Origin: Ignisphaera sp.
Lineage (GTDB): Archaea; Thermoproteota; Thermoprotei_A; Sulfolobales; Ignisphaeraceae
Length of the DNA: 32,000 nucleotides
Assembly: GCA_038735125.1 (NCBI GenBank)
Contig: JAVYNU010000007.1
Location: 60,546-92,545, forward strand
Reading direction: 5' to 3'
Of the stretch, positions 4,832-25,080 are shown piece after piece (the stretch's first letter is position 1; the number at the start of each line of letters is the position of its first letter). The position numbers were made by a program, and so were the translations under genes. The notes under the pieces are model-generated. The model was not told the origin of the DNA, searched no databases, and saw nothing but the letters and a program-made list of their open reading frames with translations.

Positions 4832-5040
4832 TACACTCCTAAATATTCAAAATAAGACAAGTGCTTGAATAAATAATAAACTTTGTCGATAAAACATCGT
4901 TAAATAGGCAACAAATTGCTGTGGCTGGTTCTGTGAAGAAATCTTTTGTGCTGGGCTACTTGGCATATTCAAAAATCGATTTGGTTTATCTATCATCAAT
5001 TTTTATATTTGCCCTGCCCAATTTTTTTTAAGGTGTTTAA

Positions 5041-6045
5041 ATGTCTGTGGGAACCTCATTTAGATTGGCTTTTCCTAGAAAAAGAGCTGGGAGGGAGATA
5101 TATGACTGTGTTGTTGTTGGGGCTGGCCCTGCTGGGCTAACAGCAGCCATTTACCTGGCTAGATTTGGTTTAAAGACTGTTGTTGTTACCAAGGATATTG
5201 GGGGGAAGATGGCTATAGCCCCGCTGGTTGATGACTATCCTGGTGTTCCTGAGGTTCCTGGAGGTAGGCTTGCAAGTCTTTTTGAGGCTCATGTGCGCAA
5301 GTTTGGTGTTGATATTGTTGCTGGGAATCCAATGGATAATCTTAGGAGAGAGGGAGACCTATGGTGTGTTGAAACTGTTAATGGAGATGTCTTTTGCGGC
5401 TATGCCGTTATAATTGCTATTGGATGTGAGAAAAGAAAGCTTGGTGTTCCTGGAGAGGATAGGCTGGTCGGAAAAGGGGTTTCCTACTGCGCTGTTTGCG
5501 ACGCTCCATTCTTTAAAGACAAGGTTGTTGCTGTTGTTGGTGGCGGAGACTCTGCATTATCTAGCGCTATCCACCTTGCATCCTATGCTAAAAAGGTCTA
5601 TATCATCCATAGAAGAGATAGGTTCAGGGCCTTCCAAGCCTATGTAGAAAAGGTTTTGAATGAGCCAAAAATAGAGCTTCTTCTAAATACAGTAGTTGTT
5701 GAGATAATCGGGAAAGACAGGGTTGAGGCTGCGAAGATCAGAAACGTTGTTAGCGGTGAGGAGAGGATTCTACCCATAGACGGAGTATTCATCGAAATTG
5801 GGTCAGAGCCCCCAGTAAACATTTTGAAGAAGATTGGACTGGAGCTCGATGAAAAGGGCTACATAGCTGTAAAACCAGATATGAGCACAAACCTGCCAGG
5901 GGTTTTCGCGGCAGGCGATGTTGCTGGAGGGCCGTGCAAAAAGAGATTCGAGCAAATAGTTGTTGCAGCAGCTGAGGGGGCTCTTGCGGCAGACTCTGTC
6001 TACCACTATATCCTAAGTCTGAGAAAAGGTGGTGAACACAGGTAG
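5041..6045 (+). CDS. trxB: thioredoxin reductase (FAD pyridine nucleotide-disulfide oxidoreductase)
   Basis: FAD site YDCVVVGAGPAGLTAA, redox-active CAVCD, NAD(P)H site VVGGGDSA plus HRRDRFRA, and C-terminal GDVAG. Confidence 0.9.
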   Translation: MSVGTSFRLAFPRKRAGREIYDCVVVGAGPAGLTAAIYLARFGLKTVVVTKDIGGKMAIAPLVDDYPGVPEVPGGRLASLFEAHVRKFGVDIVAGNPMDNLRREGDLWCVETVNGDVFCGYAVIIAIGCEKRKLGVPGEDRLVGKGVSYCAVCDAPFFKDKVVAVVGGGDSALSSAIHLASYAKKVYIIHRRDRFRAFQAYVEKVLNEPKIELLLNTVVVEIIGKDRVEAAKIRNVVSGEERILPIDGVFIEIGSEPPVNILKKIGLELDEKGYIAVKPDMSTNLPGVFAAGDVAGGPCKKRFEQIVVAAAEGALAADSVYHYILSLRKGGEHR

Positions 6046-6070
6046 CGGATGTTGTAAAGCAAAATACAAG

Positions 6071-6098
6071 TATAGAAAACTTTCATAATAGAAAACTT
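6071..6098. repeat. direct repeat ATAGAAAACTTT x2 (6071-6082 and 6087-6098) upstream of rubrerythrin
   Basis: Read directly from the sequence. The second copy abuts a TTTATAT TATA-like element about 35 nt upstream of the ATG at 6137. Confidence 0.5.
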
Positions 6099-6136
6099 TA
6101 TATGAGATCTTCTTGAATGGTCTACTGGGTGAAAAA

Positions 6137-6697
6137 ATGGTTAGATCAATGACAAAAGATGCGCTTCTATCGGCTTTTGCAGGGGAGTCCATGGCCCATA
6201 TGAGATATCTCATATTTGCTGATATCGCAGAGAGAGAAGGTTTCAAGAATGTTTCGAGACTCTTCAAAGCTATAGCATATGCTGAGCAAGTCCATGCATC
6301 TAACCACTATAGAGTGTTGAGAGACTATAAAGAAGATGCAAAAGTCTATTCAGGAACCCCCATAGGACCCGGCAACACGAGTAAGAATCTTGAGCTTGCC
6401 ATAGCCGGAGAAGAGTATGAGGTCAAGGAAATGTATCCAGTGTTTCTAGAGATTGCAAGATACCAAGGAGAGGCAGAGGCTGAGAAAAGCTTTTCCTATG
6501 CGTACCAGGCAGAACAAATACATGCATCACTTTATAAACAGGCCAAGGAATATGTGGATAAAGGGCAAGACCTTCCACTAAAACCCGAGGAAAAGATTTG
6601 GATATGCCCAGTATGCGGCCATACAATAATTGGTGCAGAACCGCCAGAGAAATGCCCTGTTTGCGGAGCACCGAAAAATAGATATGTTGGATTCTAA
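6137..6697 (+). CDS. rbr: rubrerythrin
   Basis: Diiron four-helix motifs (GESMAHMRY, AYAEQVHASNH, GEEYEV, AYQAEQIHASLY) plus a C-terminal rubredoxin-like CPVCG...CPVCG. I chose the ATG at 6137. Confidence 0.9.
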   Translation: MVRSMTKDALLSAFAGESMAHMRYLIFADIAEREGFKNVSRLFKAIAYAEQVHASNHYRVLRDYKEDAKVYSGTPIGPGNTSKNLELAIAGEEYEVKEMYPVFLEIARYQGEAEAEKSFSYAYQAEQIHASLYKQAKEYVDKGQDLPLKPEEKIWICPVCGHTIIGAEPPEKCPVCGAPKNRYVGF

Positions 6698-6710
6698 ACA
6701 AAATAAAATC

Positions 6711-6717
6711 TTTTTTT
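6711..6717 (+). terminator. oligo-T tract (T7) downstream of rubrerythrin
   Basis: TTTTTTT lies 14 nt after the rbr stop. Archaeal terminators are typically oligo-T runs. This is positional inference only. Confidence 0.3.
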
Positions 6718-6791
6718 AAACCTAATAAAACTAGTAAATAGAAGTCTGTCAATTCTTGCATATTTAATCTGACACCAGTTTCAGCTAGTAT

Positions 6792-7529
6792 GTGGTGAAG
6801 ACCATTTCCCAGAACCTTATAACGCTTAGAGATTTGTTGGAGTGTTGCATTGTTGAGAGGATATCTAGATTCACTGTGGTTGTAGATATTGGCGGTGCTG
6901 AGGCAGTAGCTTATCTAAACAATACAGGTAGGCTTGAAGGCTACTTGGCTAGAGGCAGAAAAGGTTTTTGCATACCTTTGGAGAGGGGTAGAGCTAGATA
7001 CAGACTTGTTGGCGTAGAAGACAATGGGTATGCAGCTCTAGTTGACACCAGGCTCCATGAGAAATCCTTTGAAGAACTTGTGGCCAGAGATGCTATCCCA
7101 TGGCTAAGAAACTGTGCATTGATTAGAAGAGGCTATCCTCTACACAGCTCTAGAATAGACTATGAATTGGAATGCAGAAACAAAACCACTCTAGTTGAGC
7201 TCAAGAGCGCTGTTATGAGGTTTCCCGACAACTTCACTGGGTACCCCGATGCACCAACACCTAGAGGAAGAAAACACATCGAAGCACTAGCAAAATTTGT
7301 TTCAGGTGGAGACAGAGATGCATATGTGGTTTTCGTTGCTGGCATACCAAACGCAAAGGGGTTTAGACTCAACTGTCACATAGATAAAGATATCTGCAAA
7401 AGCATTGAAAATGCATTAGAAAATGGGGTTAAATTCAAGTCAATCAACATCTATCTAGACCCATATTTAAAAAACATTGTTTTTGGAGATCTGGATCTCC
7501 ATGTCGATTTTAGTTGTTGCGGTCTCTAG
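6792..7529 (+). CDS. sfsA: SfsA-family (sugar fermentation stimulation protein homolog) nuclease-fold protein
   Basis: RISRFTVVV (OB-like N-terminus), AYLNNTGRL, SRIDYELE, LVELKSAV, FPDAPTPRGRKHIEAL: the typical SfsA motifs in order. Confidence 0.85.
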   Translation: MVKTISQNLITLRDLLECCIVERISRFTVVVDIGGAEAVAYLNNTGRLEGYLARGRKGFCIPLERGRARYRLVGVEDNGYAALVDTRLHEKSFEELVARDAIPWLRNCALIRRGYPLHSSRIDYELECRNKTTLVELKSAVMRFPDNFTGYPDAPTPRGRKHIEALAKFVSGGDRDAYVVFVAGIPNAKGFRLNCHIDKDICKSIENALENGVKFKSINIYLDPYLKNIVFGDLDLHVDFSCCGL

Positions 7530-7741
7530 CTATACAAAGTTGGGCAGAAAGAGATGTCAATCCTAATACGTCTCGAAAATGTGTTGTCAAGGCTAGGTCT
7601 ACTTAAATTATAAATATTGTAACAATAAAGTAGAGAGGAATGCTAAAATGCTGTTACCTTACACAACGCTACCTTCTTTACAAAACATGGCTATTTCATT
7701 TAACCCGCCCAGCTACAAAAAATCGAGTCTTTTTCAACACT

Positions 7742-8302
7742 TTACCGTATTAGAATAGATTCTAAATCGTTTATGCTTCTAATTAGTTCTTCATGTTTTC
7801 CATGGCCTATTCTTTCCTCTTCTATTCTCTCAAATTCTTCAACTAACTCTCTATCTGTGTCATAATCTAGTACCTGTGTTGCTAGTTGGAATAGAATGTT
7901 ATCTTCTTTGAAAATGTGATTTCTCAGAAGGTTGATGTAGCCATAGGCATTTTCTACAATATCTTGTAGAGCACTAGCATCGCCTGAATAGAATTTTTCT
8001 ATGCTATCCTCAAGATTTTTTATATACCTTCTGCCCATATCATGCTCATATAGCATAACGCCTATAGGGCCGCCCTCTTTTGGAATTCCCAATCTTTCTA
8101 ATGTCGGGAAGAAGGCGCTCTCCTCTTTTCCATGGTGACACCTATCAGCAAATAGTTTGAAGAATGTGATTAAGGTTTCAAAGACTTTTCTATCAACATT
8201 TTTCCCTTGCTGTAATTTAATTACCGAATTTTCAAGCAACTGCAAGGCCTTCTCTATAACTCTATGGTCATTCATGAGGAGCTCTATAGACCTCAAATTC
8301 AT
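7742..8302 (-). CDS. hemerythrin-like (HHE cation-binding) domain protein
   Basis: LMNDHRVIEKAL, DRCHHGKEE, MLYEHDMGRRY and NHIFKEDNILF: the His/Glu ligand pattern of hemerythrin-like domains. Confidence 0.8.
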   Translation of the reverse strand: MNLRSIELLMNDHRVIEKALQLLENSVIKLQQGKNVDRKVFETLITFFKLFADRCHHGKEESAFFPTLERLGIPKEGGPIGVMLYEHDMGRRYIKNLEDSIEKFYSGDASALQDIVENAYGYINLLRNHIFKEDNILFQLATQVLDYDTDRELVEEFERIEEERIGHGKHEELIRSINDLESILIR

Positions 8303-8435
8303 CTCCCATATTGTCTATCTCTACAAAAACACTTTTATGTTTTGCCTTCATAACAATCTGGAACAACAAAACAAAACAGTGTTACAACATTCAGATTTAA
8401 AAGGTGGTAAAGAATAACACGAAACTATGTAAAGG

Positions 8436-9629
8436 GTGTACCAGATGGCTAGAGCCGTTCTGATAGATGATGGCGTTTGGTGGGTTGGGGCAAGAGACAT
8501 TAGTAGAAGAATCTTCGATTCCATCATACCTCTGCCTAAGGGTACATCATATAACTCATATCTTGTTGTTGGTAAGGAAAAGATTGTGTTGATAGACACC
8601 GTCAATCCTGGATTTGAGAGTGAGTTGGAGGAAAGAATTTCTTCTGTTGTTAAACCATCAGATATAGATTACGTTGTTATGAATCATGCTGAGCCAGATC
8701 ATGCTGGGGCTATTCCACATATACTCAGAATCTCTCCCAAGGCAAAGCTTGTGACAACGGCTGTGGGAGCTAAGATGGCCAAGATCTTCTATGGTGTTCC
8801 AAATGATAGAGTATATGTTGTTAGGGACGGCGATACAATAGATCTGGGAGGTAAGACCCTAAAGTTCATAGAGGCTCCCATGCTTCACTGGCCAGAAACA
8901 ATGTTTACGTACTTAGAAGAGAATAAGATACTATTCACATGTGATTTCTTTGGGGCTCACATAGCCCAGGGTCTGTGGGATGATGAGGTAGAGGATTTGA
9001 TATACCACGCACAAAGGTACTTTGGAGAAATAATGATGCCCTTTAGAGTTAATGCTTTGAATGCATTGAAGAAAATAGCTGGTCTTGATATAAGAGTTAT
9101 TGCCCCTTCTCATGGACCCATATACAGAAATCCGAGGAAAATCATTGAGAGTTATTATAGCTGGGTAGAGGGAAGAACAAAGAGGAAAGCTGTTGTACTA
9201 TATGTATCAATGTGGGGCTACACTGAAAACATCGTCAAAACATTTGCTGATGATCTTAGAGCCGAAGGAATAGATGTTGTTCTACATAATTTAGCGGTAG
9301 CAGATTTAGGCGATGTAGCGAAAGATCTTGTAGACTCTCGTGCAATTGTATTAGCAACACCAACAGTTGTGCTAAATGCACATCCACTAGCAGCACTAGC
9401 GGCTTATCTAGCTAAAATACTGAAACCCCCTGCAAAGTACCTAGCACTAATAGTTCTATATGCTTGGGGTACACAAGCAGAAAGACAATTACAAGAAATA
9501 GCGAGAGATCTTAAGGCAGAGCTTATAGGAATGGTAAAAATTAATGTGACGCCTTCCAAGGAAGATATAGAGAATTTAAGAGGTTTAGCAAAAGAACTTT
9601 CAAAAAGGTTGAAAGCAGAGCCAGAATAA
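8436..9629 (+). CDS. fprA: flavodiiron protein (FprA-type O2/NO reductase)
   Basis: Metallo-beta-lactamase-like diiron motif NHAEPDHAG, then HWPETMFTY, DFFGAH, and a C-terminal flavodoxin-like domain (VVLYVSMWGYTENIV). GTG start at 8436, or ATG at 8445. Confidence 0.9.
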   Translation: MYQMARAVLIDDGVWWVGARDISRRIFDSIIPLPKGTSYNSYLVVGKEKIVLIDTVNPGFESELEERISSVVKPSDIDYVVMNHAEPDHAGAIPHILRISPKAKLVTTAVGAKMAKIFYGVPNDRVYVVRDGDTIDLGGKTLKFIEAPMLHWPETMFTYLEENKILFTCDFFGAHIAQGLWDDEVEDLIYHAQRYFGEIMMPFRVNALNALKKIAGLDIRVIAPSHGPIYRNPRKIIESYYSWVEGRTKRKAVVLYVSMWGYTENIVKTFADDLRAEGIDVVLHNLAVADLGDVAKDLVDSRAIVLATPTVVLNAHPLAALAAYLAKILKPPAKYLALIVLYAWGTQAERQLQEIARDLKAELIGMVKINVTPSKEDIENLRGLAKELSKRLKAEPE

Positions 9630-12729: not shown

Positions 12730-12845
12730 AGCAGATTAAATATTTGCTCGATATAAACTCCTATACTAAGTTTATTTATCTAGTGTTTATTAAACCGCTT
12801 ATAACAAGTTTATTTAGCATTGGATACAAAAATCATGGGGTTTTT

Positions 12846-15339: not shown

Positions 15340-16368
15340 TCATTTGATGCTATCTATTATTTCTTTGTACAGCTTTAGAGCTTGGTCCGCGTCTGTTGTT
15401 CCCTTTACAAATACTTTTCCATTACGTAATATCATTACCTCGAAGCCGCTTACCACACCATAAGCCACAGCACCATCATATATCCTCAGATTCTTAATAA
15501 GATTGGATTTTGTCAGCTTTTCTAAATCTAGCTCTGCACGGCTTTCAGATACTATTTTAACTGCTCTTGCCCCACACATAGGCTTTACATTTTTGCCTCC
15601 TTTGAATAGGTAATCAAATCGCTTGTAAACACATGTAGGACAAGAACTATTTCTCCTTACATAAGCTCTTTCAATTGCTGCACTATATGCATCGACCACA
15701 TATAGGTGCTCATCCACATAACCCTCGGTCAAATATTTTATTGCGATAGATAGTGCCACTGATACTGTTAAATCTACAGCTATTGGCGTCACACCAAAAA
15801 TTTCACATGCATTTTCTCTCGCTCTAGCTCTTGGAATAAAGCACTTTAGACAAGCTGTTTTCTCTGGCACAACAAGCTTTACATTTCCATACCATCTCTC
15901 AACACCAATCATAACCCAGGGTTTGCCAAGATTCACACACGCTTCGTTTATCAGGTACCTAGTATCCATATTGTCAGTGCCATCTATAACGAGATCTACA
16001 TCTCTGATAAAATTCTGGATATTATCAGCATCAACATCATCTACAATAGCCTCAACCTCAACACCACTGTTAATCTCCTTTAAACGGTTTCTACATGCAA
16101 TAGCCTTGGGCACCCTCCCAAAAGCATCCTCTTCTCTAAACAGACGTGTTCTATGGAGATTGCTTACCTCAACAACATCCCTATCAACAACTCTGATAAA
16201 ACCGGCACCAGCCCTGGCAAGAACTTCAGCCACGCTACTGCCTGTAGCACCGCAGCCGATGATGGCTATTCTGGACTCGGCTAATTTAAGCTGCTTTTTG
16301 ATTCCTAGAACAAGTATCTGTCTCGAATATCTCTCAATAAAGTCTGCAACATCTATTCCCCTATTCAT
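15340..16368 (-). CDS. E1-like ThiF/MoeB/HesA-family adenylyltransferase with an extra C-terminal domain of about 90 aa
   Basis: YSRQILV, nucleotide loop IIGCGATGSSVAEVLARAG, DRDVVEVSNLHRTRLF, two CxxC pairs (CLKC, CPTC), and a conserved Cys in NACEIFGVTP. The C-terminal extension (…EVMILRNGKVFVKGTTDADQALKLYKEII) is not rhodanese-like. Confidence 0.85.
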   Translation of the reverse strand: MNRGIDVADFIERYSRQILVLGIKKQLKLAESRIAIIGCGATGSSVAEVLARAGAGFIRVVDRDVVEVSNLHRTRLFREEDAFGRVPKAIACRNRLKEINSGVEVEAIVDDVDADNIQNFIRDVDLVIDGTDNMDTRYLINEACVNLGKPWVMIGVERWYGNVKLVVPEKTACLKCFIPRARARENACEIFGVTPIAVDLTVSVALSIAIKYLTEGYVDEHLYVVDAYSAAIERAYVRRNSSCPTCVYKRFDYLFKGGKNVKPMCGARAVKIVSESRAELDLEKLTKSNLIKNLRIYDGAVAYGVVSGFEVMILRNGKVFVKGTTDADQALKLYKEIIDSIK

Positions 16369-16501: not shown

Positions 16502-16729
16502 TTAGAATTCCGCTGTTTTTCTAAGCCTTACTTCGTAGTACTTATCTTTTTCATTTACATCAATTGTTCCAATGCCAAATGCCTCAACAGATTCTCTAAT
16601 CATATCGACACAGAGCTTTGATGTTGTTAGCACAACTATTTCCTCTCCTCTGCGCACCTTGGAGAATTCTCTAATGGTCTTGACCAGTGGTTGCGGACAC
16701 TCTTCGCCTCTAAAGTCTAGCACCTTCAT
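16502..16729 (-). CDS. tusA: TusA/SirA-family sulfur-carrier protein
   Basis: 75 aa with LDFRGEECPQPLVK (the CPxP active-site motif). The ATG lies 4 nt after the stop of the upstream acylphosphatase-like gene. Confidence 0.85.
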   Translation of the reverse strand: MKVLDFRGEECPQPLVKTIREFSKVRRGEEIVVLTTSKLCVDMIRESVEAFGIGTIDVNEKDKYYEVRLRKTAEF

Positions 16730-16733
16730 TTGC

Positions 16734-17045
16734 TTAAAGCCCTTCCTCGCCAGCGCATTTAATGATCATGAAGTCCGTGTACAGCCCCTTATATTCGTGT
16801 TCTACCACATCAACTCGATTAATGGTGTATACCCTATTCTGGAGTACTCTGTCTATCAGTTCACGTATTTCACTGTCTATGCCTTCAACATATATCTCAA
16901 CACAGTCGCTATTAGGTATATTCATTATAAAACCTCTTAACCCAAGCATCTTTGCTATTCTCCAAATATATCTTCTAAACCCAACACCTTTAACTTCTCC
17001 ACAAATAGTAATTGAAGATGCTTTGAGCATCTCCCTCACCCTCAA
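16734..17045 (-). CDS. acylphosphatase-like domain protein
   Basis: ICGEVKGVGFRRYIWRIAKMLGLRGFIMNIPNSDCVEIYVEG matches the V-x-G-x-V-Q-G-V-G-F-R ... G-x-V-x-N signature. The catalytic Arg and Asn equivalents are both present. The TTG at 17045 overlaps the upstream stop; an alternative ATG lies at 17030. Confidence 0.75.
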   Translation of the reverse strand: MRVREMLKASSITICGEVKGVGFRRYIWRIAKMLGLRGFIMNIPNSDCVEIYVEGIDSEIRELIDRVLQNRVYTINRVDVVEHEYKGLYTDFMIIKCAGEEGL

Positions 17046-18451
17046 ACCAACTTAAATTGTGAAAGAATCTTTTTATCAGCAACAAACTTTTCCAGTGATT
17101 TCGGTGCTTCGACCTCCGGCTCACCCAAATCTACAACCTCGCCTATTACAGCTGGTTCTAGTCCCCGAGACTTCAGATCCCTAACTATATCCTCAGATAT
17201 TTCGCTAGGTGCGATAATTATGAAGGGCCCATTAGTTCCACTTGTAGCATTTGGAATCACATACAGCTTTGTTGCTATCTCCGATATCTCTGGGTATAGG
17301 AGAGGTACTGAGTATAGTCTTATCTTACTATTTGTTCTCTCTGCAAGCTCTTTAACAACAAAAATACCAGGTCCTGTGACGTCTGTTGTAACTGCTATGT
17401 GTTCATCTGGTTTGTATTCCTCTTTACTGGGTGGCAGATATTTGTACACAACCTCTGCAGCATGTATATTGGGTTTAGATATGAGTTCCACAACACTATC
17501 TTTTATTTTCTCTATATATTTCACATCTATGCCTTGTTTCTCTAGGTCTTTAACAAGGCTCTCATCTATTACACAGGATAGGTATAGGTTCAGTGGGGCT
17601 AGCTCTCCCATAGGCCTTGTTATGATGAGCTTCATACCCTTCTTGACCTTATCTTCAAATAGTGGCGGAGCTCTATCTGTGTAGCCAATAACAGTTGCTC
17701 CCATTAGTAGCCTCCCCTTCTTTGGCTGTATCACATCGATTATTTTGATGCCATATTGTTTTGAGTAAAGGTCTACATTCTTTAATAGCTTTCCTAAAAG
17801 TTCTTCTGTAGGAGCATTTACCACCGGTGCAATTCTTAGATCCTTGTACACACCTAAGACGAATATGTCGTTAAGTGCATTACTCAAAGCTCCGCTAACC
17901 TGCTTAAAGTCTCCAGGCTCTTGAGATGGATCTATAATATGAATTGTATCATTGTTAATAGCTGTAAAGCCCTCTAGTTTAGTTGATGGAGATATGAAAT
18001 CAAAAAGTGCAAACTCGTCTTCTGGAAACGGAGTTATAATTGAGTGTCCCTTTCCAACTACTATCTCTAAACCGCTTTTGGCAAGCCCTCTGTATACAGG
18101 CAAAACTCTGTTGATGAATCCCTCTGGAGAATCTGCATATCTCTGATACACTTGGACAACAGTAACAGAATAAAGCTTTTTATGTCTTTTCAAACTATTC
18201 TCCACATCGATATCAACTCCAAGAGGGTATATAGACCTATGAACCTCATCAGCACAGCCAGGCAAAACTAGGGCATCTTCTCTAGGTGCTATGAAAAACC
18301 TAGAGTTTTTAAGTTCATCCCTAATAGTCTTTAAGGCAGGGTAGACAACCCTTAGAAGATCAACCTTAACAGCACAGCCAGTTGCAAGCGCAAGCGGATT
18401 TAAGCCAAGTTTCTTATAATACTCAACTCTCTTGATAATCTCTTCAAACAT
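17042..18451 (-). CDS. SelD-like (selenophosphate-synthetase family, PurM superfamily) protein with internal expansion
   Basis: By-eye alignment to E. coli SelD gives these matches:
- N-terminal loop ATGCAVKV versus GAGCGCKI (Cys and Lys conserved).
- EDALV versus DDAAV.
- NALNDIFVLG versus NAISDIFAMG.
- KLIITRPMG versus KLFLTKPLG.
- TTDVTGPGI versus MTDVTGFGL.
- AVIGEVV versus TAIGELV.
I chose the ATG at 18451 because TAGGTGGCTTATG places a GGTG Shine-Dalgarno-like element 5-8 nt upstream. The ORF-track TTG is at 18478. Confidence 0.7.
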   Translation of the reverse strand: MFEEIIKRVEYYKKLGLNPLALATGCAVKVDLLRVVYPALKTIRDELKNSRFFIAPREDALVLPGCADEVHRSIYPLGVDIDVENSLKRHKKLYSVTVVQVYQRYADSPEGFINRVLPVYRGLAKSGLEIVVGKGHSIITPFPEDEFALFDFISPSTKLEGFTAINNDTIHIIDPSQEPGDFKQVSGALSNALNDIFVLGVYKDLRIAPVVNAPTEELLGKLLKNVDLYSKQYGIKIIDVIQPKKGRLLMGATVIGYTDRAPPLFEDKVKKGMKLIITRPMGELAPLNLYLSCVIDESLVKDLEKQGIDVKYIEKIKDSVVELISKPNIHAAEVVYKYLPPSKEEYKPDEHIAVTTDVTGPGIFVVKELAERTNSKIRLYSVPLLYPEISEIATKLYVIPNATSGTNGPFIIIAPSEISEDIVRDLKSRGLEPAVIGEVVDLGEPEVEAPKSLEKFVADKKILSQFKLV

Positions 18452-18458
18452 AAGCCAC

Positions 18459-18710
18459 CTACCTCTTCTTCTTAACAACTATTCTCCAAACACCTCTATC
18501 GATATTCTCAACACCTAGTACCTCATGACCATCGGCTTCAACAGCTTTTGGCACGTTCTCACAAGATGGCGGATTATCAGTTATAACCTCTAAGACATCG
18601 CCGGGATTGATCTGTGAAAGAGCTTTTCTAGTATATATGACTGGATATGGACATACAAACCCTCTGACATCAAGTACATACTTATTGTCGCCAATCTTTG
18701 CAAATCTCAA
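18459..18710 (-). CDS. tusA: TusA/SirA-family sulfur-carrier protein
   Basis: 83 aa with LDVRGFVCPYPVIYTRKAL (CPxP motif). TTG start. The stop lies 7 nt before the ATG of the SelD-like gene. Confidence 0.85.
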   Translation of the reverse strand: MRFAKIGDNKYVLDVRGFVCPYPVIYTRKALSQINPGDVLEVITDNPPSCENVPKAVEADGHEVLGVENIDRGVWRIVVKKKR

Positions 18711-18721
18711 TGTAAAAACAC

Positions 18722-18738
18722 CTATAACAATGTTATAG
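18722..18738. promoter_or_regulatory. perfect 17-bp palindrome CTATAACA-A-TGTTATAG, candidate operator overlapping the tusA promoter
   Basis: Read directly from the sequence. It lies 12-28 nt upstream of the tusA TTG start at 18710, where a TATA/BRE element of a leaderless or short-leader archaeal transcript would sit. Confidence 0.45.
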
Positions 18739-18838
18739 ATGTATGAATATATAAGTATTGCGAATTTGAATGCATAAAAAGTTGGATGGATTGTGTTAAA
18801 AGCAATATTCTTAATTTACATTAACAATCCTTATTATA

Positions 18839-18853
18839 TTAACAGTGTTATAG
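18839..18853. promoter_or_regulatory. second copy of the palindromic motif (TTAACAGTGTTATAG) upstream of yeeE
   Basis: 13 of 15 positions are identical to the 18724-18738 part of the first site. It lies 9-23 nt upstream of the ATG at 18862. Confidence 0.4.
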
Positions 18854-18861
18854 GTGATATA

Positions 18862-20109
18862 ATGGTCGATCACACTATAAATGACAGGGCAAATACTAAA
18901 GACGTTATCAGCTTTAAGAAGTATTTGGAGAGCAACTATTTTAGAAAGGTTTTCGGATCAGATGGATGGCCTATTGTGGTAGCAGGTATTTTAATAGGTT
19001 TAATAAATGTTGTATCATATGTATGGGTTAAGAAGCCTTTTACTGTGTATACAGGGTTTCTAAACTGGGGGCAGCACATATATAGCTTACTAGGCTTGAG
19101 CAGTCTAGCGGATACGCCTAAGACCTCGCCTCTTCTAGACCCTACAAGTGCTGGCGATATAGGGGCTATTTTAGGTGCTATGATAGCTGCTATACTATCT
19201 AATGAATTCCGTTTACGGGGGGTAGATAGACTAGGAGTTATTGAGAGTATTGTTGGGGGTGTTTTAATGGCTCTGGGAGTTTCAATGTCGTTTGGATGCA
19301 ACTGGGGAGGCTTTTTATCTGCTATAACATCTTGGAGTCTACATGGATATGCATTCCTATTAGGAGCCTTAGCAGGTGGCTATCTAGGACAAAGATATGT
19401 GCTGTGGAGAGCTGAGAAAACATTTAGACTAGAATCAAAAGTTGATCTCTCGATAGGCTCCGGCTATGAGAGAAAGCGTGAAGCTGGCCAATATGGCGTA
19501 TTGTTGGTTATACCACTAACAATAATAATTTTAGCATCTATTTACTACGCCTATATGAAAAGCTATATGATTGGTGGATTACTAATAGGCGTAACCATGG
19601 GCATGATACTACAGAGAGCAAGATTCTGCTTTGCAACAGCATTTAGGGATTTGTTTGGTGGCCCAGAGGCTCTAAGGGCAATCAACATTCATAAGGGAAT
19701 TGCTGTAGCAATGCTTGTAGGGGCTACGGGTGTTTTTGCACTAAAATACATGGGTTTGGCTGATATATGGATACTTGTCTCACCTGTTTATATAACTAAT
19801 GTGATTGGAGGAGCCATATTTATATTTGGAGCTATTATGGTTGGTGGTTGTGCATCGGGAATTCTATGGCGTATAGGCGAAGGCCATTTGAAAGCACTGA
19901 TAGGATTGATATCAACAGTTTTAGCATATCCAATGTTTGTCAATATTATTAGCAAGCGCTTAGTTACATACCCAAGAATCTTTATGCCAGGTGCGGTTGG
20001 CTGGATTGCTGCATATGCAATATTCATAATATTCATATCTATATATCTAATGCTTCTTCTCTATCAAGAGTATAGACTGCAGAGAGAAAGGGGCTTGTCA
20101 CAACGCTAA
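18862..20109 (+). CDS. yeeE: YeeE/YedE-family (TsuA-like) sulfur/selenium-compound transporter
   Basis: Polytopic membrane protein with the family's conserved Cys motifs (SFGCNWGG, RARFCFATAFRD, VGGCASGILWR). I chose the ATG at 18862, preceded by AGGTGA. The ORF track starts at 18793. Confidence 0.85.
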   Translation: MVDHTINDRANTKDVISFKKYLESNYFRKVFGSDGWPIVVAGILIGLINVVSYVWVKKPFTVYTGFLNWGQHIYSLLGLSSLADTPKTSPLLDPTSAGDIGAILGAMIAAILSNEFRLRGVDRLGVIESIVGGVLMALGVSMSFGCNWGGFLSAITSWSLHGYAFLLGALAGGYLGQRYVLWRAEKTFRLESKVDLSIGSGYERKREAGQYGVLLVIPLTIIILASIYYAYMKSYMIGGLLIGVTMGMILQRARFCFATAFRDLFGGPEALRAINIHKGIAVAMLVGATGVFALKYMGLADIWILVSPVYITNVIGGAIFIFGAIMVGGCASGILWRIGEGHLKALIGLISTVLAYPMFVNIISKRLVTYPRIFMPGAVGWIAAYAIFIIFISIYLMLLLYQEYRLQRERGLSQR

Positions 20110-20248
20110 TCCTTTTACGAATTCCAATTTCCTTTTTATCCAACTTTCATAGTTCAAAACCCATCTAAATTTGTTTTAGAATCTACAGACATGTCGCAAG
20201 CGTTACATTAAAAACACTTGTATAGCTATTTTGAGTTTGGGTGGCTCT

Positions 20249-20779
20249 ATGGCTAAGAGTAATTTGGTGCAAATTGCAAGAGCTTTAATATCATTGGTTA
20301 GAAGTGGTTGGATGCTAAGGGGTGTTCCCAGTGGTATTGCCGAGTCTGTTGCTAACCACAGTTTTCTAACAGCATATATATGCATAGAGATTGGCAGTAA
20401 AATTGAGGGCGTTAACATAGGCAAGCTTGTTCTATACTCTCTTCTACACGATGTTAGCGAGGCTTTTACTGGCGATATTGCTAAGGTGGTTTCTCTTCGT
20501 GTTGGTGCTGTGAAGAAGGAGTTGGAGTTAGATTTAATTGAAGAGAATGTTGATAATCCATTGGTTAAGAAGATGTTTAGAGAGTATTTAGAGCAAAAAG
20601 ACTTTGAATCTAAAGTAGCTAAGCTATGCAATTATATAGCCACATATCTAATAGGGTTAGAGTATAAGAGACTGGGCTACAAAGTCGATGATATAATAGA
20701 CAACACCTATAGAGATATCATGGAAATGACTAAAAAATATAATTTAGAGGAGATTGTTACTGAACTTCTCAACAGCTAA
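20249..20779 (+). CDS. HD-domain phosphohydrolase (YfbR-like 5'-nucleotidase type)
   Basis: ESVANHSF...LLHDVSEAFTGDI is the H...HD...D metal-binding pattern. I chose the ATG at 20249. Confidence 0.8.
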   Translation: MAKSNLVQIARALISLVRSGWMLRGVPSGIAESVANHSFLTAYICIEIGSKIEGVNIGKLVLYSLLHDVSEAFTGDIAKVVSLRVGAVKKELELDLIEENVDNPLVKKMFREYLEQKDFESKVAKLCNYIATYLIGLEYKRLGYKVDDIIDNTYRDIMEMTKKYNLEEIVTELLNS

Positions 20780-20860
20780 AGCTATGGTAATGGACATGTG
20801 AAGATAATTCTGTTTAAAGGTCTCTGCTTTAAATATCTCTGCTAGATAGATTCATTAAAA

Positions 20861-21043
20861 CTATACAATGCTTTGGGTACATATATACAGATCTTTTATC
20901 GGTCTATATACGGTTGGTATGCTTAGTCCATAGTATACATGCCTAGTTGTTTTAGGTGGGTACACACTCTTTCTGATATGCGCCATTTCTATGATGCTAC
21001 GTTTTGATGTGTGTATATCCTTTCTAAGTGAATATACATCCAC
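20861..21043 (-). pseudogene. displaced C-terminal portion of the ParB-like gene (out of frame because of the 13-bp duplication)
   Basis: This 60-codon ORF joins in frame with 21024-21380 if one copy of the 13-bp tandem repeat is removed. It has no convincing start or ribosome-binding site of its own. Confidence 0.5.
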
Positions 21044-21380
21044 ATAGTTTTGTAGATAATTTTTGTAGATAATCTACAAGAAATGTTGCTGCACATTTCA
21101 CACCAATTTTCTTAAGGGCTTCTACTCTGTGGTGCCCATCAAGAATAGTTAGAGTCCTTACATCGACTATTATCGGGTACTTCAAATATCGACTAACTTT
21201 CATCTCTTTTGCAATAAGCTCAACTAAATCGCTATAAACATCTTCATGTGGTCTAAGCATTTCTATGGGTATGTCGTATACCCTTAAACTATCTTTGTAT
21301 GGATTAAAATGAGATAGTTTATCTTTGCCAAAGGCTCTGATTAGAAAGGGCAATGTGTCTATATCTAAATCCATTGGCAT
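21024..21380 (-). CDS. ParB/sulfiredoxin-like domain protein, apparently truncated (possibly related to archaeal free-serine kinase SerK)
   Basis: IPIEMLRPHEDV and TILDGHHRVEALKKIG are ParB-like nuclease-domain motifs. It lies 13 nt downstream of the cysteine-synthase-like gene. Its last 12 codons are created by the tandem duplication. Confidence 0.65.
   Translation of the reverse strand: MPMDLDIDTLPFLIRAFGKDKLSHFNPYKDSLRVYDIPIEMLRPHEDVYSDLVELIAKEMKVSRYLKYPIIVDVRTLTILDGHHRVEALKKIGVKCAATFLVDYLQKLSTKLCGCIFT
21048..21073. repeat. perfect 13-bp tandem duplication TTTTGTAGATAAT x2
   Basis: Read directly from the sequence: 21048-21060 equals 21061-21073. The second copy also forms a palindrome with the following sequence (TTGTAGAT-A-ATCTACAA, 21064-21080). 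Confidence 0.95.
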
Positions 21381-21393
21381 GGCCTTCCCAAGA

Positions 21394-22578
21394 CTAGCTT
21401 ATATATCTAGATAACTGCTCTACATACTTAAAGCCGTGGTCTGGGAATATGAGGATGTAGTCACCTTCATCAAGAGCCCCCCTTTCTACAAGTTTTCTAT
21501 AGGCCATGTATACAGCCCCACTACTCAGCCCTATCAATATTCCATCTCTTCTAGCAACTTCTATAACGCCCTTGGCAGCCTCGTCAGGTTTAATATCTAT
21601 TACACCATCTATTTCCACATGGTGTACCCACTTCATACCGCTTTCAATTCTTCTAATGCCTTGGATGGCAGTCCCCTCTGCAGGTACAACACCATAGACC
21701 TTAACCCCGCTGAATCTGTTTTTGAAGTATAGGGCTATGGCTGACATGTGTCCAGATGTGCCTAAGCCCCCTATTATGGCCTTGGGCTTTATCCCAGCCT
21801 CTCTTATTTGAATCTCAAGCTCTTTAGCTGTATACCTTAAGTGAACCTCGAAGTTTGCATCGTTGTAAAACTGGTTTAGGTGTATAGCACCCTCAGTTTT
21901 TGCGACAGCCTCGACTTCGTCTATGAGATCTACTGTCAACGGTTTTGGTGATCTAACAACTTCTGCACCAAAGATTTTTAGAAGAAGTTCTCCCGTTAGA
22001 GAAACTGTTGAGGGTATATATGCTCTAAGCTTAGAGTTGTGGATATTAGACATAGCAGCTATAGCAAGCCCTGTATTTGTTGATGTGGACTCCACCAAAA
22101 GACCTAGCTGAAAACTGCCAAGTCTCTCAGCAGCCTTTCTATACATATACCATCCAATCCTATCCTTAACACTCATACTCCAAGGGTTAAAGCCTTCCAG
22201 CTTAGCCCACACAATCCTGCCGTCAACGGAAGATCTTGGCAACCTTACCAAAGGTGTTGGCCAATTTCTATACAAAAGCTCTTCAGTATCAGCAAAAACT
22301 CTGTACCTACTCGGATTAATTTCATCGAAAAAGCCCAGCCTTTCAAGAGGGACAAACGTGTTTTCTGCAGAGCCACGTGATACAGATATGTATTTAACCC
22401 CCAGTTTCTTTAAAGCAGCGCATAGCTTAGCATTTTCAACAACCCTTCCACTATCTACATCAATGGCTACTGTTTTGTCGACACCACCCTTTCTAAGAAT
22501 CTCGCTTACAATAGCTATAAACTCTTCGAGCTCTAGTCTATCGCTGCAAACCACTTTACCAATATCTTCTAGATACAC
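21394..22578 (-). CDS. cysteine synthase family PLP enzyme, long archaeal O-phosphoserine sulfhydrylase-like form with an extra N-terminal domain
   Basis: PLP-lysine motif NPWSMSVKDRIG, TSTNTG, GLGTSGHMSA and GLSSGA identify the fold-type II Trp-synthase-beta family. At 394 aa it carries a roughly 90-aa N-terminal extension. GTG start. Confidence 0.85.
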   Translation of the reverse strand: MYLEDIGKVVCSDRLELEEFIAIVSEILRKGGVDKTVAIDVDSGRVVENAKLCAALKKLGVKYISVSRGSAENTFVPLERLGFFDEINPSRYRVFADTEELLYRNWPTPLVRLPRSSVDGRIVWAKLEGFNPWSMSVKDRIGWYMYRKAAERLGSFQLGLLVESTSTNTGLAIAAMSNIHNSKLRAYIPSTVSLTGELLLKIFGAEVVRSPKPLTVDLIDEVEAVAKTEGAIHLNQFYNDANFEVHLRYTAKELEIQIREAGIKPKAIIGGLGTSGHMSAIALYFKNRFSGVKVYGVVPAEGTAIQGIRRIESGMKWVHHVEIDGVIDIKPDEAAKGVIEVARRDGILIGLSSGAVYMAYRKLVERGALDEGDYILIFPDHGFKYVEQLSRYIS

Positions 22579-22593
22579 AAATTTTGATCACCA

Positions 22594-22607
22594 ATAACAA
22601 TGTTAAT
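22594..22607. promoter_or_regulatory. third copy of the palindromic motif (ATAACAATGTTAAT) upstream of the cysteine-synthase-like gene
   Basis: The 12-mer ATAACAATGTTA is identical to the core of the 18722-18738 site. It lies 16-29 nt upstream of the GTG start at 22578, in the divergent intergenic region shared with iscU. Confidence 0.45.
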
Positions 22608-22715
22608 GGGCCAGGAATAAAAAGCTTTTCGGCTTAAAAAGCGAAACAAAGGTTTTGGTATAGGCCTTGGGGCTGTCTTCACATAGACAAGCTTTATATT
22701 TCTATTTGTATAAAT

Positions 22716-23252
22716 ATGTTATTGGTGTTTAGATTGAGTAGCAGAATACCCTTGCCATATAGCCCAAAAGTGCTAGAAATATTCAGAAATCCGAGAAATC
22801 TTGGGCCACTAGAAGATGCTAATGTTGTTGAAATGGCTGGTAGCCCTGCATGCGGAGATATGATAAGGCTCTATCTAAAAATTGTTCATAGAGATGATGG
22901 TGACTATATCGAGAAGGCCTCTTTTGAAAGCTATGGATGTGCAGCAAACATCGCTGCTGCTAGTATTTTAACTGAAATGATTATAGGGAAAAAGGTTGAG
23001 GATGCTTGGAAAATATCGTGGAAGCAAATATCTGATGAGCTCGGAGGCCTTCCACCAATAAAATATCACTGCAGCATTCTTGCTGTAGGCGCTTTGAAAA
23101 GAGGTATAAGAGCTTACTATAAACAGCTTGGCTATAACCCACCGTGGCTTCCAAAGGATTTGACTGCTGAGGAGAGGCAGGTTTTAGAGGAAGAGGAGAT
23201 GATGGAGAGATACTATAAAGCGATGAAGGCCTTGAGCGGTGAAAGCCGATGA
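22716..23252 (+). CDS. iscU: IscU/NifU-like Fe-S cluster scaffold
   Basis: YSPKVLEIFRNPRNLG, then the three ligand cysteines in GSPACGDMI, SYGCAANIAAAS and KYHCSILA. It has a C-terminal extension of about 45 aa. The start could instead be one of the downstream TTG/GTG codons (22722-22734). Confidence 0.9.
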   Translation: MLLVFRLSSRIPLPYSPKVLEIFRNPRNLGPLEDANVVEMAGSPACGDMIRLYLKIVHRDDGDYIEKASFESYGCAANIAAASILTEMIIGKKVEDAWKISWKQISDELGGLPPIKYHCSILAVGALKRGIRAYYKQLGYNPPWLPKDLTAEERQVLEEEEMMERYYKAMKALSGESR

Positions 23253-23497
23253 GAGAAATCGATTTGAGATACATCCCAACATCATGCACATCGCATCCAG
23301 TTATAGTCTTAGCCAACACCCTTAAGGATCTGGAGAGAGAAGGTGTTGAAAAATTCAAACTCATTTTCAATGTTGATGACATTCCTGTAAACGCCATAAA
23401 GTTCTTTCTGTCTAAACATGGCTATTGTGTTGAAGAGGAGAGTCCTTTAGACAATAGATCAATGTCTGTTCTAGCCAGTAGATGTGGGAAGAGATGA
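23249..23497 (+). CDS. divergent TusA-like small protein (CPxP replaced by C-T-S-H-P)
   Basis: 82 aa. IDLRYIPTSCTSHPVIVLANTLKDL parallels LDxRGxxCPxPxxxxxxAL of TusA. It has ATGA overlaps with both iscU (23249-23252) and iscS (23494-23497). Confidence 0.5.
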   Translation: MREIDLRYIPTSCTSHPVIVLANTLKDLEREGVEKFKLIFNVDDIPVNAIKFFLSKHGYCVEEESPLDNRSMSVLASRCGKR

Positions 23498-24723
23498 TGT
23501 CTATAGCTCAAAAAGTTAGAGAGCTCTTGAAGTCCCATGGAAGCCCCTCTAAAGAGGTCTACTTTGATTTGGAGAACAGTGGTTTTGTGCCGCAAGAAGT
23601 TGTTGAGGCTATGATACCATATTTTAATAGAATTGGCTATGGACATCCATCAATAACACACAAACCTGGTTGGGAAGCTCTTGAGGTTGTATATGAAGCT
23701 AAGGAGTTGTTGGCCAAGACTATAGGCGCTTCAGATCCAGACGAGATAGTATTTACACATAGCGGTACAGAGGCAAATAACTTAGCCATACTGGGCTATC
23801 TTCTGAAGAATAGGGGTAGAAAGGGTAAGGTTGTTGTATCTGCAATTGAGCATCTAAGCGTTATATTTCCAGCTCAATTCGCTTCAGAGCTATTTGGATT
23901 CAAAACAGTTTTAGTGCCTGTAGACAGCGAGGGCTTTGTTGATCCAGAGCTATTCAAATTGTATGTAGATAAGGAGACTGTTTTTGTCAGTATTCAAATG
24001 GTTAATCATGAGATTGGAACTATACAAAGACTGAAAGAGCTAATCGATATAGCGAAAAGTGTCAACCCCGATATTGTTTTCCACACAGATGCCGCTGATG
24101 CCTATGGGTGGATACCAATAGACGTTAATAAACTTGGGGTGGATATGCTTACAATCAGTAGCCACAAGATTCATGGACCTAGAGGAGTAGGAGCATTGTA
24201 CATTAGAAAAGGAGTAGAGGTTGAGTCCCCTATAAAAGGTCAGCTAAGTGTTGAGAAGAACTGGCCTGGCGTTGAAAATGTTCCGCTTATAGCAGGTTTT
24301 AAGAAAGCCGTTGAGATAATGTTTAGCAACTTCAATTATAGAGTTGAATATGTTAAAAAACTTAGAGACAAGCTTATAAAGGGAATAATATCGTCTGTAC
24401 CCCATACAATAGTCAACGGACCTATAAACGAGTATAGAGTTGCTAACAACGCCAACATAAGCTTTCTGTACATAGAGGGAGAAGCTCTAACAGTTGAGCT
24501 AAGCCTACGCGGAGTCTATGTATCTAGCGGAAGTGCATGTTCAAGTAGAGTCTTAGAGCCAAGTCACGTTCTACTAGCTATTGGAAGAAAGCATGAGGAG
24601 GCACACGGGAGTATACTGTTCAAGGTATCACACTACCACAGAGAAGAGGATGTAGATTACGCATTAGAGGTCATACCAAAAGCTGTTGAAAGACTTAGAA
24701 AAATGAGTGCATGGAAACAGTAA
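23494..24723 (+). CDS. iscS: cysteine desulfurase (class V aminotransferase, NifS/IscS-like)
   Basis: FTHSGTEANN, HTDAADA, the PLP lysine in SSHKIHGPRG, and the active-site loop SSGSACSS. I chose the start at 23494 (ATGA overlap); the ORF track gives 23482. Confidence 0.9.
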   Translation: MMSIAQKVRELLKSHGSPSKEVYFDLENSGFVPQEVVEAMIPYFNRIGYGHPSITHKPGWEALEVVYEAKELLAKTIGASDPDEIVFTHSGTEANNLAILGYLLKNRGRKGKVVVSAIEHLSVIFPAQFASELFGFKTVLVPVDSEGFVDPELFKLYVDKETVFVSIQMVNHEIGTIQRLKELIDIAKSVNPDIVFHTDAADAYGWIPIDVNKLGVDMLTISSHKIHGPRGVGALYIRKGVEVESPIKGQLSVEKNWPGVENVPLIAGFKKAVEIMFSNFNYRVEYVKKLRDKLIKGIISSVPHTIVNGPINEYRVANNANISFLYIEGEALTVELSLRGVYVSSGSACSSRVLEPSHVLLAIGRKHEEAHGSILFKVSHYHREEDVDYALEVIPKAVERLRKMSAWKQ

Positions 24724-24732
24724 AACGAGTTG

Positions 24733-25080
24733 ATGAAAATGATTAAAAAGTCTTTTTGCGAAGAATTCATAAAGAAATACTCAACAACTCTAAGAATTGC
24801 AATAGCTCTAAACCTTGTCAAAAAATACAACATATCCCAATTCCAAGCATCAAAGATGACAGGTGTTCCGCAACCACTTCTCAACTACATCATAAACGGA
24901 AAGAGAAGAATACCAAGATTAGAAAAAATATTGAAAAACGCACAAATGTCTTCGCTGGTAGACGAGCTTTCAACTAAACTAATCAAAGGAGAGGAGCTGG
25001 ACATGTGTAATGTATGCATAAGAGTAAGGGATGTGCTAGGAATATCACATCCATTAACAGAAAAATCCGAAACCAGCTAG
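24733..25080 (+). CDS. small HTH (XRE-like) putative transcription regulator with a C-terminal CxxC
   Basis: ISQFQASKMTGVPQPLLNYIINGKRR resembles an XRE-type helix-turn-helix; DMCNVCIRV follows downstream. It lies 9 nt after the iscS stop, so it is probably co-transcribed. Confidence 0.55.
   Translation: MKMIKKSFCEEFIKKYSTTLRIAIALNLVKKYNISQFQASKMTGVPQPLLNYIINGKRRIPRLEKILKNAQMSSLVDELSTKLIKGEELDMCNVCIRVRDVLGISHPLTEKSETS

Follow-up and report, generated by a model that had tools for sequence, protein, structure and literature searches.

Palindromes in the promoters of archaeal sulfur genes suggest a conserved regulon with a small helix-turn-helix protein as candidate repressor

Are the genes with which a hyperthermophilic archaeon acquires, assimilates and mobilises sulfur placed under one common control, and if so, by what protein? 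The question is raised by a stretch of 32,000 nucleotides from Ignisphaera sp. (GenBank assembly GCA_038735125.1, contig JAVYNU010000007.1, positions 60,546 to 92,545, forward strand), here called the window and numbered from its first letter, in which a short palindrome recurs ahead of genes for a sulfur carrier, a sulfur-compound transporter and a cysteine synthase. An earlier note on this DNA proposed that the palindromes mark a sulfur-mobilisation regulon, and that a small helix-turn-helix (HTH) gene, last in a nearby string with iscU and iscS, encodes the cognate factor. Taking window and relatives together, we judge it fairly probable that the palindromes serve as operators in a regulon that is conserved among archaea and governs sulfur assimilation and mobilisation, with the HTH protein as candidate binder, working as a repressor and controlling its own synthesis.

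The sequence TAACANTGTTA has three exact matches in the window (at 18725, 18840 and 22595), where 0.06 are expected from dinucleotide-preserving shuffles; none of 100 shuffles reached three, and the highest count in any of them was one. All three copies are in promoters, those of tusA, of yeeE and of a cysteine synthase of the O-phosphoserine sulfhydrylase (OPSS) type. Putative operator 1 (TATAACAATGTTATA, 18723-18737) is a perfect 7-N1-7 palindrome located 13-27 nt 5' of the tusA start (TTG 18710, minus strand). Putative operator 2 (ATTAACAGTGTTATA, 18838-18852) lies 11 nt 5' of the probable start (ATG 18862) of a yeeE/tsuA-type transporter gene, and the two pair as a 17-nt inverted repeat. 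Putative operator 3 (AATAACAATGTTAAT, 22593-22607) is the site on which the earlier note had centred, and its details hold: the sequence ATAACAATGTTAAT is located at 22594-22607, 16-29 nt 5' of the cysteine-synthase GTG at 22578 on the minus strand, and the identical 12-mer near tusA (ATAACAATGTTA) at 18724-18735. Rankings made without reference to the motif also bring it to the top. When all 5-N1-5 palindromes of the window are counted without bias, TAACA comes first, and a repeat finder run on 18400-23000 returns the dyad both as its best direct repeat (D1) and, in the pairing of operators 1 and 2, as its best inverted repeat (I1). The dyad is absent from the other intergenic regions of the window, about 30 in number, being confined to sulfur-related promoters.

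Two weaker versions are also present. One, in the iscU promoter (TATAAATATGTTATT, 22709-22723), has the core TAAA-TAT-GTTA, with seven of the eight core bases, followed by GGTG and a probable TTG start at 22734; the other (TATAACAAGTTTATT, 12800-12814) has the core TAAC-AAG-TTTA, also seven of eight, and lies about 33 nt 5' of an in-frame ATG (12846) at thiM. Both had been reported earlier, and the thiM version, ATAACAAGTTTA, is indeed found at 12801-12812. For the iscU version, ATAAATATGTTAT at 22710-22722, sequence and position stand and the claimed overlap with the iscU start probably does not: the alignment with orthologues agrees better with a start at the conserved TTG 22734 after GGTG than at ATG 22716, which would place the site about 13 nt 5' of the start and not over it. 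A one-mismatch search of the window gives five matches against 1.46 expected, a number reached by 3 of 100 shuffles. By window statistics alone the iscU and thiM sites are within chance; their support comes from full sites at the orthologous positions in relatives. Further near-matches at 4890 and 8372, in the regions of a thioredoxin-reductase (TrxR)-like gene and of hemerythrin/FprA genes, carry an AAAC half-site, are not in the usual position after a TATA-like box, and are probably chance matches. As a separate observation, the dyad pairs 18725/18840 and 22595/22711 have their centres 115-116 bp apart in both divergent regions, or about 11 helical turns. This spacing is probably incidental, since it is not kept in relatives (88 bp in locus L016, 19 bp in L033).

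Is the palindrome kept where the same genes occur elsewhere? Eighty genomic loci encoding relatives of the cysteine synthase were fetched and the 45 closest archaeal ones analysed (46 with the window); further loci were fetched through the regulator itself, using a six-sequence alignment. Loci are cited below by number. The closest relative of the window among them is a metagenome-assembled genome (MAG) from Thermoproteota, whose cysteine synthase is 91% identical at the protein level. The kept core is TAAC-N3-GTTA, within a 15-bp dyad TATAAC-N3-GTTATA (symmetrised consensus cTATAACAnTGTTATAg). This core occurs no more than 150 nt 5' of the cysteine-synthase operon, or of a serK-like plus cysteine-synthase operon, in 20 of the 46 loci, against 4 of 46 for the runner-up among the 255 other X4-N3-X4' palindromes; the loci behind these counts are not independent, being related and for the most part picked through one target gene. 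Operator 3 is kept at the orthologous position in L001, L002, L003, L005, L016, L020, L022, L024, L045 and others, and the loci with a dyad at this operon span Ignisphaera, other Desulfurococcales, Pyrodictiaceae (Pyrodictium) and Bathyarchaeia. Conservation in orthologous promoters and enrichment over a shuffled or compositional expectation had both been named beforehand as tests of the proposal. The first is found from Ignisphaera to Bathyarchaeia, and the second is strong, in the window as well as in the intergenic DNA of the relatives: over the window and the 45 loci, 108 kb of intergenic DNA (of 675 kb) holds 53 matches to TAAC-N3-GTTA where 3.2 are expected, an over-representation of about 16-fold, while the 567 kb of coding DNA holds 29 against 13.8. 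Outside close relatives the flanking intergenic sequence does not align, and the dyad is for that reason better read as a footprint than as a product of simple shared ancestry. A repeat or mobile element was considered and rejected; the common sequence is only some 15-23 nt long and its flanks are unrelated.

Could the dyad nevertheless reflect chance, composition or a core-promoter feature of A/T-rich archaeal promoters? In favour of this are the G+C content of the window, about 40%, the A/T-richness of its promoters, and the selection of the motif only once it had been noticed; the two weak sites, too, add nothing beyond chance within the window. Such a reading is hardly credible in the face of the shuffles and unbiased rankings given above, the restriction of the dyad to sulfur-related promoters in the window, and its conservation over phylum-level distances. 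The earlier judgement that three strong sites are unlikely to have arisen by chance is thus upheld.

The relatives also bear on how the weak sites are to be regarded. The iscU site of the window aligns with a full site in L016, and full-core sites occupy the iscU position in L005, L016, L020, L045 and L100. Three other loci (L094, L096, L101) have one-mismatch iscU sites in which the mismatch is always in the promoter-distal half. That half reads TAAA in the window and L001, TAAT in L094 (at about 3726), and TAGC in L096 (about 3927) and L101 (about 1821), while the proximal GTTA half and the GGTG are retained at the degenerate sites. Because the distal half-site is degenerate in several independent lineages, the iscU operator, at the head of the operon that encodes the regulator, looks deliberately weaker. 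In L002 thiM is preceded by a full site (gcttaTAACAATGTTAtaaga), whose left flank is that of the weak site in the window. ThiR, the archaeal thiamine regulator, may yet act at the thiM site but is not favoured as its explanation, since the site carries the motif of the sulfur genes and so needs no separate regulator.

What genes, then, stand behind the dyad? In the relatives it precedes cysteine synthase or the serK-like gene, iscU, iscS, an IscS-like aminotransferase and thiM, and in four Ignisphaera lineages a ThiF/MoeB E1 gene. Further genes behind it are those for a Cys/Met-metabolism enzyme dependent on pyridoxal phosphate (PLP), ThiI, a PP-loop ATP-pyrophosphatase, a D-cysteine-desulfhydrase-like PALP enzyme, a MoCF-domain protein and the iron permease FTR1, as well as tusA together with an HD-domain gene. 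Every identified downstream gene is concerned with handling sulfur, iron-sulfur (Fe-S) clusters or thio-cofactors, with one case (FTR1) concerned with iron. The proposal of a sulfur-mobilisation regulon is supported and should be widened beyond its original three units, the relatives adding thiF/moeB, thiI, the PP-loop enzyme and the Cys/Met PLP enzyme. It is very likely that the dyads are operators of a sulfur regulon.

How would such an operator act? At most sites the order is a TATA-like box, 9-12 nt, the dyad, 2-3 nt, GGTG, and the start codon 8-15 nt further on. The TATA-like box is A/T-rich and often has AAAG or AAGC ahead of it, and GGTG is found on the gene-proximal side only. In the cysteine-synthase promoter the box (CTTTTTATT, 22616-22624, minus strand) ends 10 nt 5' of the operator core, and in the tusA promoter (CTTATATATT, 18746-18755, minus strand) it lies about 10 nt 5' of operator 1. 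In archaea the centre of the TATA box is usually about 25 nt from the transcription start; with a gap of 9-12 nt from TATA-like box to core, transcription is accordingly predicted to begin at the dyad's 3' edge. A position between TATA-like box and GGTG is the classic place of an archaeal repressor operator, given a start predicted in this way from the TATA distance. The half-site centres are about 9 bp apart, compatible with binding by a dimer.

Another reading is that the palindrome acts in RNA, as a 5'-leader hairpin at or including GGTG that controls translation or stability. At the tusA site (18715-18745, minus strand) such a hairpin can indeed be drawn, with 11-bp arms that include GGUG, a folding energy of -10.7 kcal/mol at 37 C and z = -5.7, but the other three sites fold no better than shuffles (z = -0.8, -0.1 and -0.3). 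What is kept is a core of 4+4 specified bases, the 3 nt between them being free to vary; compensatory changes are not seen, and the predicted transcription start falls inside or at the edge of the dyad. Ignisphaera and Pyrodictium are hyperthermophiles, at whose growth temperatures an A/U-rich 6-bp stem would not survive. A search against Rfam gave no match, and no tRNAs were found. Control through RNA is accordingly very improbable, and an operator in DNA is the reading pursued here.

If the dyad is an operator, which protein binds it? The candidate is the HTH gene at 24730-25080 (plus strand, ATG 24733), last in the iscU-orf82-iscS string, whose 116-aa product has Cys10-Glu11 near its N-terminus and Cys93-x-x-Cys96 near its C-terminus. 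It passes marginally against Pfam HTH_3 (23.5 bits at a gathering cut-off of 23.0, residues 31-69), a model matched at E <= 0.01 by 49 of 59 family members, and it matches no NCBIfam model. Its 90%-identity cluster carries NCBI names from Ignisphaera sp. In an exhaustive HMMER search covering 1.84 billion representatives, 80 relatives reach E <= 0.001, and a profile search finds more than 500, with generic names only, in Thermoproteota, Bathyarchaeia, Aigarchaeota, Thor-/Promethearchaeia (Asgard), Hydrothermarchaeota, Brockarchaeota and Aenigmarchaeota; this is an uncharacterised archaeal protein family. Among 59 diverse members Cys10 and Glu11 are invariant, while Cys93, Cys96, Arg22, Leu29 and Arg59 are kept in at least 90%. 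The CxxC pair to which the earlier note drew attention is thus nearly invariant; what that note missed is the third cysteine, in the invariant Cys-Glu at the N-terminus. A confident AlphaFold2 model (predicted local distance difference test score 93.2) is all-helical, with six helices, and has both cysteine motifs at helix N-termini.

A link between this family and the dyad is suggested by gene position. HTH-family genes were located with a hidden Markov model (HMM) in all loci collected. The dyad stands directly 5' of an HTH-family gene in L022, L024, L045 (a regulator-tusA operon), L081-83, L090 (where TATAACAGTGTTATA lies 13 nt ahead of the HTH-gene ATG) and L109, a Bathyarchaeia locus with a second dyad 5' of iscS-iscU. 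It stands at the head of an operon that includes the gene in L005, L020 and L100 (iscU ... regulator), and in L030 and the cultured Pyrodictium delaneyi (L091), where the operon consists of serK-like, cysteine-synthase, iscS-like and regulator genes. In P. delaneyi the site at the operon head is the only exact one in 16 kb. Two Bathyarchaeia loci, L033 and L038, have two tandem copies of TTTAACGGTGTTAAA in a short divergent region common to cysteine synthase and an HTH-family gene, the neighbouring ORF matching the HTH-family profile with 99.3% probability. In all, at least eight gene arrangements place the dyad directly 5' of an HTH-family gene or its operon, where the chance of a core site in any 60-nt stretch is about 0.2%. 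The same synteny is seen in loci fetched via the regulator, where a single locus may have as many as four strong sites in its intergenic DNA. Persistent adjacency of the HTH gene, together with a dyad 5' of it, is what an autoregulated cognate factor usually shows, and the suggestion that the small HTH gene encodes one gains support from many lineages. The operator link is seen only in Thermoproteota and Bathyarchaeia; more distant family members without the dyad still adjoin TtuA/ThiS genes, ThiI and PP-loop enzyme genes or DsrE/Hdr-like genes, and distant members also occur beside iscSU.

Several observations weigh against this assignment or against the model as a whole, in addition to the interdependence of the loci noted above. 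The HTH link is purely positional, and co-localisation would fit an unlinked factor too. Near the HTH gene no exact site is present in L013/L015, L084-89, L093, L103 and L107, and the HTH operon of the window itself carries only the degenerate site. The dyad is absent at cysteine synthase in the Ignisphaera relatives L007, L009, L010 and L017, and in the yeeE promoter it is placed differently relative to its best TATA-like box. The predicted fold of the HTH protein has no significant solved relative: Foldseek searches of the PDB with the model gave no significant whole-protein match (best E 0.67), with alignments limited to HTH pieces of about 50 residues (a DeoR N-domain, 2A6C), and a profile search of PDB sequences matched only the HTH part of XRE-type proteins, 2A6C being the best. 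Finally, the three cysteines could form a structural zinc site rather than a sensor.

Some of these points would also suit dyads that are real sulfur-regulon operators bound by another factor, encoded elsewhere, with the HTH gene a regulated member or a regulator of something else. This we regard as unlikely. The arrangements with the dyad at an HTH-family gene or operon head come from Ignisphaera-like lineages, Desulfurococcales, Pyrodictium and two Bathyarchaeia lineages; of the DNA-binding genes in the neighbourhoods, only this one is kept; and the geometry of the dyad suits a dimer of the Cro/XRE type. From gene position, the three-cysteine (Cys3) HTH protein is likely to be the binder of the dyad.

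Two variations concern the HTH family itself. In the Sulfolobales MAGs L013 (at about 820-860) and L015, the HTH gene is divergent from cysteine synthase with about 50 nt between them, and the usual dyad is missing. In its place a perfect palindrome of 14 bp, ACATTTATAAATGT, lies over the TATA region, and TAAC and GTTA are separated by 12 nt, possibly because the geometry of the operator has changed. Several Ignisphaera relatives (L004 13804-14193, L005 13543-13947, L008 13830-14219, L007 7759-8157) also encode a second paralogue, which is more distant (E of about 1e-12 to 1e-14 with the family HMM); none was found in the window.

With the HTH protein as binder, regulation might proceed as follows. 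The protein would bind the dyad as a dimer, one recognition helix to each half-site. Covering the predicted transcription start, it would block recruitment of RNA polymerase or opening of the promoter, leaving TBP and TFB free to bind, a mode of action described for several archaeal repressors. Repression at the predicted start is plausible; it is suggested by the dyad covering that start between TATA-like box and GGTG. The regulator gene would itself be under the motif and so subject to negative autoregulation, through the weak iscU-proximal site in the window and through a full site in other lineages. The most speculative step is sensing, in which Cys10 (with Glu11), Cys93 and Cys96 would either ligate an Fe-S cluster or take part in persulfide or disulfide chemistry. 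Binding to DNA would in that case signal that sulfur or Fe-S clusters are sufficient, and would shut down genes for uptake, cysteine synthesis and sulfur relay.

The gene behind operator 3 (21394-22578, minus strand) encodes a PALP-domain protein whose best solved relative is the OPSS of Aeropyrum pernix (1WKV, E 7.6e-73, residues 55-388), the match taking in part of the N-terminal extension. Its nearest structure and the adjacent SerK-like gene identify this cysteine synthase, by homology, as being of the O-phosphoserine sulfhydrylase type. The adjacent ParB-N/SerK-like gene (21024-21380, minus strand), in the same operon (21024-22578), has weak SerK matches and adjoins cysteine synthase in more than 25 loci. 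The copy in the window is interrupted at 21048-21073 (within 20861-21380, minus strand) by a perfect 13-bp tandem duplication, TTTTGTAGATAAT x2, which shifts its frame. Removal of one copy restores an ORF of about 168 aa collinear with the L003 orthologue, and the gene is on that account a frameshifted pseudogene or the product of an assembly error.

On the other side of this promoter region, the iscU-orf82-iscS operon (22734-24723, plus strand) encodes a NifU_N protein (IscU), the 82-aa ORF (23249-23497, plus strand) and an Aminotran_5 protein (IscS), with the HTH gene following after a gap of 6 nt. The 82-aa ORF is kept between iscU and iscS in many relatives (L001, L010, L020, L045, L093-L101). 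Its earlier description as tusA-like finds no confirmation, the ORF having no Pfam match, only a sub-threshold NCBIfam match, and no CPxP motif.

Operator 1 precedes the tusA operon (16734-18710, minus strand), made up of tusA, a gene for a SelD-related sulfur-metabolism protein and an acylphosphatase gene, the first and last recognised by TusA and acylphosphatase domain matches. The SelD-related protein (478 aa, 17042-18478, minus strand) has no Pfam match and matches NCBIfam NF038049 (SelD_rel_HyperS) at 612 bits. A second TusA-type ORF (75 aa, 16502-16729, minus strand), absent from the ORF list, has a Cys-Pro-x-Pro motif (EECPQPLV) and lies between the acylphosphatase gene and thiF/moeB, which encodes a ThiF-domain E1 of the ThiF/MoeB type (15340-16368, minus strand). 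Since this ORF bridges the two, 18710-15340 forms one same-strand string of sulfur-relay genes, and the tusA-proximal operator possibly controls the whole of it. Operator 2 precedes the gene for a yeeE/yedE (TsuA-like) sulfur-compound transporter (18862-20109, plus strand), with a Sulf_transp domain and matches to YedE/TsuA models below their cut-offs. The frame from ATG 18862 is the one that gives these matches, and a gene for an HD-domain protein is next downstream. The thiM-thiE-thiL genes, with the weak site at 12800-12814 5' of thiM, lie further upstream in the window.

Elsewhere in the window, 5041-9629 holds an oxygen-defence cluster encoding a thioredoxin-reductase-like flavoprotein, rubrerythrin, hemerythrin and a flavodiiron protein (ODP plus flavodoxin). 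In relatives a dyad is found between the TrxR-like gene and the FTR1 iron permease gene (L004 at 16611, L008 at 16633), and L008 has another at 20147, 5' of a possible hemerythrin-like ORF; the window has only the AAAC variant at 8372. Two PIN-domain (VapC-type) toxin genes with small adjoining ORFs, at 1313-2991, are unrelated to the palindromes.

What does the finding add? Few transcription regulons are known in Thermoproteota. We know of no description of the control of cysteine synthesis, YeeE/TusA uptake, sulfur-carrier activation or IscSU in archaea other than methanogens and Thermococcales, and a literature search, with coverage short of all journals, found neither the motif nor the regulator described. 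The present analysis supplies an operator, a candidate for its regulator in which a sensing module can plausibly be recognised, and a list of predicted targets, all kept over large phylogenetic distances, and with them a testable candidate for how distant archaea control their sulfur supply. Pyrodictium delaneyi, which is cultured, has a complete genome, CP013011, encodes WP_143522041.1 as its orthologue of the HTH protein and has a single exact site 5' of the regulator operon, is an organism in which the question can be tested. Predicted co-regulation also ties poorly understood proteins to sulfur metabolism, among them the 82-aa ORF of the isc operon, the PP-loop enzyme, and the SelD-related protein, the last being linked to sulfur handling by its co-regulation with tusA and yeeE. 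A more ambitious generalisation is that the archaeal Cys3 (Cys-Glu ... CxxC) HTH family acts as the master sensor-repressor for assimilating and relaying sulfur and for making Fe-S clusters, the functional counterpart of IscR and CymR on an unrelated fold; it would sense sulfur or Fe-S status by a cluster or persulfide on the three cysteines, and TAAC-N3-GTTA would be its binding site. This we offer tentatively, as a possibility about which doubt prevails.

The comparison with known regulators begins with IscR, a bacterial Rrf2 protein. As with IscR, the regulator is encoded with iscSU, appears to be autoregulated through a site at the operon head, has three conserved cysteines and a possible non-cysteine ligand (here the invariant Glu beside Cys10), and fits a logic of Fe-S or sulfur feedback. 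There are also differences. Rrf2 does not appear in the Pfam results for the window protein or among the 25 families shown for its 59 relatives, only Cro/XRE-type HTH_3 and generic HTH models being matched; the gene comes last and not first in its operon; the 15-bp dyad is unrelated to the IscR operator; the cysteine spacing is unlike that of IscR; and the regulon has cysteine synthesis, sulfur uptake and sulfur relay at its centre. Encoding in the isc operon and a site at its head are thus a functional resemblance to IscR only.

SurR of the Thermococcales, an ArsR-type winged-helix protein with an N-terminal CxxC, recognises GTT-N3-AAC and switches between hydrogenase genes and genes for S0 reduction. 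Like the system described here it is archaeal and linked to sulfur, has a CxxC, and uses a dyad of GTT/AAC triplets with a 3-nt spacer. Here, however, the orientation is the inverse, AAC-N3-GTT (within TAAC-N3-GTTA), the HTH resembles that of Cro/XRE proteins, the CxxC, to which a third cysteine is added, is C-terminal, and the targets are assimilatory and biosynthetic. Matches to HTH_5, the ArsR-type model, are weak and occur in only 6 of the 59 family members. With the half-sites inverted and the protein family different, a SurR-type site was rejected.

CymR of Bacillus and regulators of the CysB type offer the parallel of a master regulator that joins uptake of sulfur sources to cysteine synthesis via a common operator. 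They are bacterial Rrf2 or LysR proteins with the O-acetylserine/CysK complex or N-acetylserine as effectors, and have no homology to the HTH protein. The persulfide-sensing repressors CstR, SqrR/BigR and sHdrR/SoxR of Hyphomicrobium are small dimers in which cysteine pairs react with sulfane sulfur, and they too control genes beside genes of the tusA/yeeE type (PMC12423496). They differ in being bacterial members of the CsoR or ArsR families that release detoxification or oxidation genes from repression when sulfur is plentiful. As the regulon proposed here is assimilatory, unlike their targets, a response of the opposite sense is expected. The phage-type repressors Cro and C1 (XRE) share the HTH_3 signature and small size, and their operator is likewise a short dyad in which about one helical turn separates the half-sites; the long N-terminal helix of the HTH protein, running from Cys-Glu, and its C-terminal CxxC helix are without counterpart in them.

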